From NCBI GenBank assembly GCA_038065395.1, contig JBBTRB010000002.1:1-48646 (forward strand): DNA of 48,646 bases. The letters are read 5' to 3'. This document shows positions 34,295 through 34,842 of the stretch, one piece after another (the first letter of the stretch is position 1; each line of letters opens with the position of its first letter). The notes under the pieces are model-generated. The model searched no databases. It was not told the origin of the DNA and saw only the letters and a list, made by a program, of their open reading frames with translations. The translations under genes and the position numbers were made by a program. Source of the stretch: Patescibacteria group bacterium (lineage in GTDB: Bacteria > Patescibacteriota > Minisyncoccia > Phycocordibacterales > PALSA-1337).

Positions 34295-34477
34295 TGGTGG
34301 AGATGGCGGGAATCGAAGCTTACAGCTTCGGTACAGGCTTCGCGTCTCACTTCGCCCTTCGCAAGCTCAGGGCTCGTTGCGACATGCTCAGCCTTTTCGC
34401 TTCCCGCACGCAAGGTGCATTGGCACCTTGCTCATCTCCACAAACAAAAAGACCGGCACAAGGCCGGCTTTTGTTTG
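34295..34477 (-). ncRNA. t(m)RNA-3'-end-linked structured element, copy 3 (downstream of ssrA)
   Basis: A 21-bp direct repeat gtggagatggcgggaatcgaa occurs at 34297-34317 and 34477-34497; the second copy is the ssrA T-arm/acceptor. The distal copy is followed by CCA (tgg at 34295-34297) and the gene-proximal copy by CAA. Antisense segments lie at 34433-34449 and 34396-34407, flanking the hairpin at 34410-34431. A GC hairpin plus U-run lies at 34446-34476. Confidence 0.6.
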
Positions 34478-34842
34478 TGGAGATGGCGGGAATCGAACCC
34501 GCGTGCAACTGAGACTCATCGAACGATTCTACGGTGATAGTAGATATTGTAGTCTAGTGAATGTGCTTGAAATGTCTACAAAACACACATTCACGATCTC
34601 TAAGTTTCGGAACGCGGAGTGAGAAGCTCCTTGTTCCTACATCCGGGTTATGACATCCGCATCACGGTATGGATCCCCGTGAACGAACGCGCACTACTTA
34701 AGCGAGTGCGAATGCAAAATCCTTGGCTCCGAAGTACGGAGAAACGGTGTTTTTAGCATTTGTGGTTTCTGCCAGATTTACGAGATAGCAGCGCTCGCAC
34801 CGCACGAACGAGAGACGGCAATTGTCGATGCCGATCATCCCC
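34478..34842 (-). ncRNA. ssrA: tmRNA (one-piece)
   Basis: The 5' GGGGATG pairs with the 3' CATCTCC-A and includes the G3:U70 wobble. The T-arm is GCGGG-TTCGATT-CCCGC. The internal tag frame GCT AAA AAC ACC GTT TCT CCG TAC TTC GGA GCC AAG GAT TTT GCA TTC GCA CTC GCT TAA encodes ...FAFALA*. smpB is adjacent. Confidence 0.93.

Follow-up and report, generated by a model that had tools for sequence, protein, structure and literature searches.

A family of small protein-less elements behind t(m)RNA genes of Patescibacteria carries a hairpin-split complement of the neighbouring gene's 3' end

The stretch of DNA analysed here (the window) comprises 48,646 nucleotides (nt), positions 1 to 48,646 of contig JBBTRB010000002.1 (assembly GCA_038065395.1) from a Patescibacteria group bacterium, and the subject of this study is a small repeated element that lies directly behind the ssrA gene for transfer-messenger RNA (tmRNA). 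The ssrA gene occupied positions 34477-34842 of the minus strand (ARAGORN; Rfam RF00023, 118.5 bits), and the element is described below in RNA sense on that strand. The gene ended in GCGGG-TTCGATT-CCCGC-CATCTCC-A, followed by CAA, as the first-pass annotation of this locus had read it. Its last 21 nt, TTCGATTCCCGCCATCTCCAC (the proximal repeat, 34477-34497), recurred exactly at 34297-34317 as a displaced tmRNA segment running from T54 to the 3' end (the distal repeat); the 21-mer was found at these two places only, and two matches occurred in 0 of 100 shuffled sequences. The CA reported after the distal copy was present in the window, but it did not hold as a general feature, since the orthologous copy in a related genome (L043) had CAAAA there.

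The 180-nt insert between the two ssrA repeats contained no open reading frame (ORF). It started with a trailer (34450-34476) that serves as a variable spacer or cargo slot and here bore a terminator-like GC hairpin (34452-34468) and a T-run directly 3' of ssrA. The next segment, acc' (TTTTGTTTGTGGAGATG, 34433-34449), was a 17-nt perfect complement of the proximal acceptor 3' strand, the discriminator and the trailer. It was followed by H1, a 9-bp hairpin (34410-34431) with compensatory changes in 7/7 modelled pairs, and by T' (GCGGGAAGCGAA, 34396-34407), complementary at 11 of 12 nt to the T-loop and the 3' strand of the T-stem. The GC hairpin and these three segments had been pointed out beforehand and were found at the positions given. 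H1 thereby divided the antisense of the ssrA copy exactly at the T-stem/acceptor boundary, between tRNA positions 65 and 66 (65|66). The core (34331-34395), as defined by the structure model and covariation, consisted of a helix P2 (AGGCU/AGCCU) around UGAGC/GCGAA with tandem G.A, a GUC/GAC helix and a variable apical hairpin, and then CUGUAC. The last part was the hairpin H3 (CGAAGC-TGTAA-GCTTCG, 34314-34330), in which 5/5 modelled pairs covaried and 99.3% of the cells were paired; in the ssrA copy the TTCG of the distal repeat was contributed by the 3' strand of H3.

The core was also found, as had been stated earlier, at two further window loci, behind tRNA-Met (144-273) and tRNA-Ser (25624-25738). 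A covariance model scored the three window copies at 114-123 bits and detected no fourth copy in the window; all three were on the minus strand, each directly 3' of its gene. The copy behind tRNA-Ser(gct) (25619-25798; gene 25778-25867; 123.5 bits) had its proximal T-loop-to-end segment at 25786-25798 and a distal repeat of just 13 nt (25619-25631). Its acc' (25733-25741) matched at 9/9, or over 14 nt counting the trailer, H1 was at 25710-25731, and T' (25696-25707) matched at 10/12 in a GAGAA variant. In the copy behind tRNA-Met (128-312; gene 292-370; 114.3 bits), the 21-nt repeat GATTCCTCCCGCCGACACCCA was located at 292-312 and 128-148, T' (231-242) matched at 12/12, and acc' was 5 nt only (CGGCG). 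The window also contained, at 29299-29373, a tRNA-Ile with the TAT anticodon, which is uncommon in bacteria, and no copy of the element was on it.

A pattern scan of one genome per species gave 23 loci, and a metagenome scan gave 18 more. All but one of the genome-scan hits were in Patescibacteria metagenome-assembled genomes (MAGs) with Paceibacterota/Parcubacteria, Saccharibacteria, Nomurabacteria or Taylorbacteria labels, and the one exception among the 23 was an apparent chance match in coding sequence. The further copies that had been postulated were therefore found (about 40 loci in addition to the three in the window), and the element is a repeated one rather than a local duplication. 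Its size was about 115-180 nt and it encoded no protein. At 30 or more non-redundant loci the core lay 70-150 nt downstream of a t(m)RNA gene on the same strand, and at nearly all loci with readable upstream DNA the element was 3' of such a gene. In these Candidate Phyla Radiation (CPR) bacteria, tmRNA and at least 17 tRNA anticodon species were occupied, including those for Ser (three anticodons), Ile, Leu (two), Lys, Ala, Arg (two), Glu, Tyr, Gly, Gln, Trp, Val, Cys, Asn and Met. A scan of viral contigs for the element gave 0 matches. At one locus (L028, 7400-7710), a core without a nearby tRNA, H3 or repeat lay inside a larger region that was predicted to be strongly structured (z = -3.5) and that had no match in an Rfam search.

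The expectation that the antisense segments would track the flanking gene in additional copies was borne out in the 32 copies with a recognisable upstream T-arm. T', the 12 nt after H1, matched its own tRNA at 11.4/12 positions and the other tRNAs at 8.6/12. When only the 7 variable positions of T' (N59, N60 and 61-65) were considered, the values were 6.7/7 and 4.0/7, and for the best 9-mer of acc' they were 7.3/9 and 5.5/9; in both cases the match to the own tRNA was reached by 0 of 20000 permutations. Furthermore, acc' was complementary at 9/9 in 14 of the 32 copies, always in one register, with its end 25 nt before the start of T'; the ssrA copy matches at 9/9 in this register. Near-identical scaffolds were shared by copies that sat on different tRNAs and came from MAGs with different labels. 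L007 (Lys) and L009 (Arg) were identical at 72/73 scaffold positions and differed at 3/7 variable positions of T'; the window copy B (Ser) and L008 (Ala) were identical at 70/73 and differed at 4/7; and L001 (tmRNA) and L008 were identical at 71/73 and differed at 4/7. The differences were concentrated in T' as compared with the scaffold (pooled Fisher 2e-19, the pairs not being independent).

The element segments were not copies of the tRNA 5' strands. At the G.U pairs of the tRNAs the Watson-Crick match was kept, as in L006, L008, L016 and at G3:U70 of the window tmRNA, where acc' has an A facing U70 and the tmRNA's own 5' strand has a G; acc' and T' are therefore complements of the 3' strand, and an origin as 5'-strand duplicates was rejected. 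In six copies with a decayed distal acceptor part, acc' was perfect against the proximal copy, so that the constraint is not simply a stem with the distal repeat; in eight copies with an intact distal part, acc' was missing. Moreover, the antisense continued into the genomic trailer (CAAACAAAA in the window, CAAAAC in L019) and not into CCA, which indicates that its partner is the gene, the precursor or the element's left end rather than the mature tRNA. A retroelement primer-binding site for mature tRNA was rejected for this reason, and also because H1 interrupts the antisense. The universal minimum across the copies was H1, T', the core, H3 and the T part of the distal repeat.

Covariation was assessed in 30 copies (alignment A2). 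Standard pairs filled 98.5% of the pair cells, compared to 75% in column shuffles and 28-47% with slid partners, and double-sided changes numbered 143 against 39 expected. Every pair of H1 and H3 covaried, and the core-helix pairs 49:107 and 50:106 switched between G-C/U-A and U-A/C-G with zero broken cells. G:U pairs were found in 3/656 cells, and A.C pairs were also rare. The spacer palindromes of L007, L009 and L023 were perfect over 27-30 bp, locus-specific spacer sequence included. The rarity of G:U and the perfect palindromes hint at a strict Watson-Crick requirement, possibly at the DNA level. Since the copies were retrieved with that pattern, part of the invariance of TGAGCATGTCGC, GACGCGAA and CTGTAC is artefactual; in the diverged copies obtained by model or synteny (L043, L046 and the second copies in L016 and L024), those core positions changed, and they did so compensatorily. 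Core subtypes tended to go with the genome rather than with the tRNA, and the three copies of Parcubacteria C7867-002 were of one subtype.

Part of this pattern could have arisen without any guide function. A scaffold that had landed beside tRNA genes would have formed a quasi-palindrome with the conserved T-loop and the terminator, and quasi-palindrome correction by template-switching during replication would then have perfected the inverted repeat and extended it toward the tRNA, selection on the tRNA arm making the correction one-directional; tracking would result from hairpin templating alone. The perfect palindromes with their locus-specific spacers are what such correction would leave, as are the near absence of both G:U and A.C pairs, the transversion-type double swaps by which the stems change, and the palindrome arms that differ compensatorily between the window and L043. 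However, H1 interrupts the antisense at one register in many independent copies, and snap-back copying would be contiguous and would overwrite H1. The GAGAA variant, which faces G57-A58 and is non-complementary to it, recurred in unrelated copies and in E. coli, which argues for selection, and T' was present in L015 and L038 in the absence of any palindrome. We consider a hairpin-templated by-product improbable.

The distal repeat always started at G57/A58 of the T-loop, directly after H3, and its length was 6 to 35 nt; perfect repeats measured 21 nt in the window and 35 nt in L008. Islands in t(m)RNA genes classically leave a direct repeat that extends from the T-loop to the end of the gene, and the initial view that the repeat seen here reflects insertion at the T-loop sublocation agrees with the tandem accretion and the distal-copy decay that were observed. 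The acceptor part of the distal copy was decaying between the orthologous tRNA-Arg loci L019 and L022, and L019, L022, L047 and L002 formed a decay series. Tandem accretion was seen in L024, with two elements behind tRNA-Trp, in L049, and in L037, where tRNA-Glu was followed by a GCGAG-rich element, a repeat, a 1.6 kb cargo, H1-T'-core-H3 and a third repeat. The spacer was locus-specific among the copies, and in L036, L037 and L048 it held cargo genes. The cargo of L037 (7281-8666), in the slot before H1/T', encoded an S-adenosylmethionine (SAM) methyltransferase and a 173-aa protein without an assigned function; that of L036 (776-3621), between the t(m)RNA end and H1/T', was a Schlafen/AlbA_2-HATPase_c_4 gene, the product of which looks defence-related. 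The GCGAG-rich element of L037 (7059-7210, ~140 nt), located between tRNA-Glu and a repeat of its 3' end, is a distinct one; it contained no antisense segment and gave no match in an Rfam search.

A left module, CCGAAAAyCAAAAACCGC-loop-GCGGTTTTTG..GAGGGGGAGATGAG, was almost identical in L049, L012, L008 and L001, and the module with GAGGGGGAGATGAG spanned Paceibacterota, Saccharibacteria and Taylorbacteria MAGs; it therefore travels with the element. In L048 and L049, a separate, native-looking terminator was still present after the distal repeat. The repeats, the accretion, the decay and the left module fit an element that would bring its own gene 3' end and displace the resident one.

The window comes from a Paceibacterota/Parcubacteria population of Hainich groundwater, and the ssrA relatives examined had SmpB proteins 72-79% identical to that of the window. 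In L043 and L046, the element was present with the downstream flank as in the window, and the arms of the spacer hairpin were changed compensatorily; the ssrA locus of L047 kept a decayed left part only. A truly empty ssrA site was found at none of the six related loci. L048 and L049, which belong to one species, both had the element, and a 4.1-kb island present in L048 (10929-15078) was absent from L049. The island, which was also found in L044 and L045, encoded a large serine recombinase (Resolvase + Zn_ribbon_recom), a MerR-family protein and two proteins without assigned function; L001 probably has the same island-plus-element arrangement. The island sat between ssrA and the small element, with its crossover within TCCAC (attB ..CCATCTCCAC|CGAAAATC..), and its recombinase ORF overlapped the ssrA 3' end. 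Since the island was inserted beside the small element, the recombinase is that of a separate element that uses the ssrA end and the left module as its attachment site, and it was rejected as the partner of the small element.

These islands bear on whether the copies could be ordinary attachment-site (att) scars, that is, remnants of integrase islands after internal deletion that have no common function. Such scars would account for the direct repeat, and real islands, including those with large serine recombinases, do use the same ssrA end in relatives. Nevertheless, a single scaffold of 116 positions, strongly covarying and constant in its boundaries, was found at no fewer than 17 tRNAs in many genomes, and random deletion remnants would not have a common scaffold; in addition, the island in L048 lies beside the element, not around it. 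The att-scar explanation is largely refuted, and we assign it very little probability.

Two side observations concern the flanks of the ssrA locus. The gap between smpB and ssrA (34849-34927) contained, immediately before the tmRNA gene, a 37-nt imperfect palindrome made up of three GTAACTA heptamers in tandem and one inverted copy (TAGTTAC), which may be a promoter or operator region. Beyond the distal repeat (34215-34262), a sigma-70-like promoter, TTGACT-17-TATTAT, was followed by the leader TTTTGGGGTATTCCTGCCTAACCACAGGAC; this leader was kept in the distant relative L043 (about 3680-3710), upstream of a 132-aa ORF without a Pfam match.

Folding predicted both of the alternative antisense pairings that had been put forward, with the t(m)RNA 3' end or with the distal copy. 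When the 3' part of the tmRNA was included, the minimum free energy (MFE) fold paired acc' and T' with the proximal copy in one long helix from which H1 protruded (-110 kcal/mol, z = -8.7). When it was omitted, acc' and T' paired with the distal copy (-89.6 kcal/mol, z = -7.1), giving a 9-bp acceptor-like stem, H1 and a 7-bp T' stem around the core and H3. Because H1 is placed at 65|66, where real tRNA 5' strands are parted by positions 8-48, the distal-pairing fold resembles a tRNA-like stack.

RtT (RF00391), from the tyrT operon of E. coli, is the closest known counterpart of this layout. Like the element, it sits directly behind a tRNA gene, and the units of the two are similar in size (~170-180 nt). 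Each terminates in a tRNA 3'-end copy beginning within the T-loop (AAUCC...) and contains a 5' segment that complements the T-loop and the 3' strand of the T-stem; in E. coli this segment is GGGGAAGGAUGAGAA, and it forms the Rfam closing stem. In the 178-nt RtT unit (E. coli, L050), GGGGAAGGATGAGAA was the complement of the tRNA-Tyr T-loop, the T-stem 3' strand and the first acceptor bases; each unit ended in AATCCTTCCCCCACCACCA, and the Rfam consensus pairs AATCCTTCCCCCACCACCA with GGGGAAGGATGAGAA. The TC->GA change of RtT was also present in the window copy B, L002, L026 and L029, the 12-mer GAGCGAAGCGAG was common to RtT and the CPR element, and CGAAGGGCGAAG was common to RtT and the window copy C. 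Strings like GAGCGnAGCGAG occurred in many spacer loops, in the core apex and in E. coli RtT. The claim that a target-complementary segment goes beyond known precedent was thus overstated, as RtT has one beside a duplicated tRNA 3' end, and the element is not categorically new.

Nevertheless, RtT and the element differ in several respects. RtT is without H1, acc' and H3, and the topology of its internal helices differs. The RF00391 model gave no match in the window at its gathering threshold (45 bits), nor at E<=10 on 34200-34520 and 25560-25800, whereas it scored the E. coli units at 134-137 bits in the same search; the element model scored rtT at 8-10 bits (E 0.02-0.05) in a shifted alignment. 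In this survey RtT was seen solely as tandem units behind tRNA-Tyr, its copy number in E. coli varying at 1-10 places per genome, whereas the CPR family was on at least 17 tRNA species and tmRNA with the antisense re-specified each time. The copies represent a sizeable and apparently undescribed family, which has the guide-like property suspected at the outset. The role of RtT is still described as unknown (bioRxiv 10.1101/2024.07.17.603846).

The likeness to RtT raises the possibility that the element is a trailer RNA co-transcribed with the t(m)RNA, with an antisense that would serve structurally, as a stem, and as a handle for processing. Following removal of the t(m)RNA, acc' and T' would pair with the distal repeat, forming an acceptor/T-stem stack in which H1 replaces positions 8-48, and RNase P, RNase Z or 3' exonucleases would release a stable ~150-nt RNA with a cellular role or as a tolerated by-product. 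The shared layout with RtT, including the Rfam pairing of the RtT antisense with the distal tRNA-Tyr 3' end, speaks for such an RNA, as do the shared TC->GA variant and 12-mer, the stability of the fold without tmRNA, and the position of H1 where tRNA 5' strands are interrupted. The ssrA copy is moreover old, orthologous and compensatorily changed, and the universal parts of the element are those that such an RNA needs. On the other side, in roughly half of the copies a terminator separated acc' from the gene. The retention of acc' where the distal acceptor part is gone, its absence where the distal part is intact, its match to the genomic trailer and not to CCA, and the scarcity of G:U pairs are also contrary to a trailer RNA, and RF00391 does not score the copies. 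A trailer RNA further leaves unexplained the cargo slot and how T' and acc' came to match 17 or more tRNAs on a 96-99% identical scaffold. It is partly compatible with the mobile-element reading developed below; as the whole explanation, it is possible, but we think it somewhat doubtful.

Other known families were also considered. Rfam searches of the window copies at gathering and E-value thresholds gave only the tmRNA end, junk microRNA hairpins and a sub-threshold permuted-tmRNA match, so that no known RNA family model scored the region, and the idea of the first-pass annotation survived this check, which it had set itself; the literature searched gave no description of the element and only one passing remark on RtT. 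A hammerhead or other small ribozyme was rejected by eye (CUGANGA was not matched, and a C was at the G8 position), as was domain 5 of a group II intron, whose helix does not match; the element is also far smaller than a group II intron. A miniature inverted-repeat transposable element (MITE) derived from a DDE transposon was rejected because the inverted segments change with the neighbouring tRNA and the repeat of 6-35 nt is no fixed target-site duplication.

Guide RNAs of mobile elements, namely IS110 bridge/seek RNA, TnpB omega RNA, the exon-binding sites (EBS) of group II introns and the homing CRISPR RNAs of CRISPR-associated transposons (CAST) directed to tRNA genes, share with the element a conserved scaffold with short variable segments that match the adjoining DNA. 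They also share the placement of two guide segments on either side of a hairpin; unlike them, no copy of the element contains or adjoins a cognate protein gene. The comparison with bridge RNA made in the first-pass annotation failed on geometry, as bridge-RNA guides pair with opposite strands, whereas acc' and T' are both antisense to the tRNA-sense strand and contiguous from T54 to the trailer. An IS110 bridge/seek RNA was rejected, as no DEDD recombinase gene adjoined and no second guide loop was seen, and a TnpB/IscB omega RNA was rejected, as no tnpB/iscB ORF was found near the copies. TnpB-type RNAs have a target-identical sequence abutting the 3' end of their scaffold, as the element has after H3, where it is equally explained as the distal repeat.

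Sites of integration offer a second set of likenesses. The attC sites of integrons and the attP(+) of CTX phage are folded single-strand recombination sites to which the element bears an apparent resemblance. In both, an internal inverse copy of a flanking core repeat folds the single strand into a mimic of the target, as it would in the element; the extrahelical bases of attC, like H1, interrupt the stem, structure is more conserved than sequence, and the structured site is preceded by a cargo slot. The likeness to an integron attC is one of topology only, and an attC was rejected, since the arms of the element are tRNA-specific and no consensus core (RYYYAAC..GTTRRRY), IntI or cassette array was seen; no attI was seen either, and the paired arms are at least 21 nt and target-specific instead of a 7-nt consensus. 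Integrase-borne t(m)RNA islands at the T-loop sublocation share with the element the direct repeat, a gene rebuilt from element sequence, a displaced 3' end that decays, and tandem accumulation at one gene. They differ in that the element has no integrase or ORF, is only 115-180 nt and uses one scaffold for many tRNA targets. In addition, it contains within itself a complement of the att repeat, something for which classical attP sites have no need.

Taken together, we tentatively favour the reading that this is a non-autonomous element which integrates or recombines at t(m)RNA 3' ends and whose hairpin-split complement specifies or mimics the target, although our confidence in it is limited. 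We infer that mobility would proceed by site-specific recombination with the antisense acting before insertion; the active form may be RNA or single-stranded DNA, and the enzyme would be supplied in trans. The mobile unit would consist, in order, of a replacement for the T-loop-to-3'-end segment, the spacer (usually a terminator, sometimes cargo), acc', H1, T', the core and H3. Recombination inside the T-loop region would join H3 to G57/A58 of the resident gene, which would be kept intact because the element supplies its 3' end, and the original 3' end would be moved downstream as the distal repeat and then decay. As the Watson-Crick complement of one contiguous strand from T54 to the trailer, with H1 in between, acc' and T' would be the specificity determinant. 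Folded on the element's own 3'-end copy or paired with the sense strand of the target, they may present the target to the trans recombinase or allow it to be recognised, and a few changes in them could re-aim a copy at another tRNA. The guide-like logic proposed at the outset gains support from the tracking and from the repeated nature of the element; it loses support with the failed bridge-RNA geometry and the lack of an adjoining recombinase. A more specific version, in which a ~115-nt protein-less scaffold with a two-part, hairpin-split, reprogrammable guide, acting as RNA or folded single-stranded DNA, directs site-specific insertion into the T-loop-to-3'-end segment of any t(m)RNA gene via a trans recombinase and RtT is a degenerate relative, appears unlikely to us.

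Several results weigh against a mobile, target-specifying element. No integrase, transposase, reverse transcriptase or TnpB was detected by Pfam among 20 ORFs of the window, which is housekeeping DNA, and none recurred among 150 ORFs around 40 loci. The copies beside an integrase, an IS110-type recombinase or TnpB that had been looked for were accordingly absent from both sets; the only recombinases among the 150 ORFs were two with a Resolvase domain, one being that of the L048 island. Nor was a recombinase, transposase or reverse transcriptase encoded inside any copy. No insertion polymorphism of the small element was found between near-identical genomes, and the ssrA copy was orthologous across species with SmpB just 76% identical, its hairpin arms having changed compensatorily; the copy is therefore old, which fits a conserved function as well as a parasite. 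E. coli RtT, in turn, is known as a processed RNA and not as a mobile element. The repeat length of 6-35 nt needs decay as its explanation, retargeting by point mutation of 12-16 nt is demanding, and pattern-based retrieval imposes an apparent invariance on the core. Templated hairpin correction, as discussed above, could yield tracking without guide function.

Two other features of the window were noted in passing. A GC hairpin repeat, TGTCATCCCCGCGAAGGCGGGGATC, was present three times (4661-4699, 4821-4859 and 15984-16012); two of these copies formed a 39-nt inverted pair 121 nt apart, with the look of a repetitive extragenic palindromic (REP) element or a terminator. At 8045-14605, a run of small genes with common repeated segments gave, on the coding strand, a pilin-like N-terminus (GFTL.EL...), which suggests a type IV pilin or pseudopilin gene cluster.

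If the element is mobile and its complement picks the target, it would amount to an insertion system that is guided by nucleic acid, naturally reprogrammable and very compact, and this would explain how many tRNA genes were colonised without a dedicated integrase for each. For annotation, the distal repeats and the antisense segments can mislead the calling of t(m)RNA genes and islands, the weak permuted-tmRNA match being an example. The family also provides the first comparative angle on E. coli RtT, which would gain an explanation if it is truly a degenerate relative of a guide class. If the copies are instead processed RNAs, they would constitute a widespread unannotated class of non-coding RNA in Patescibacteria, whose minimal genomes make retained non-coding DNA notable.

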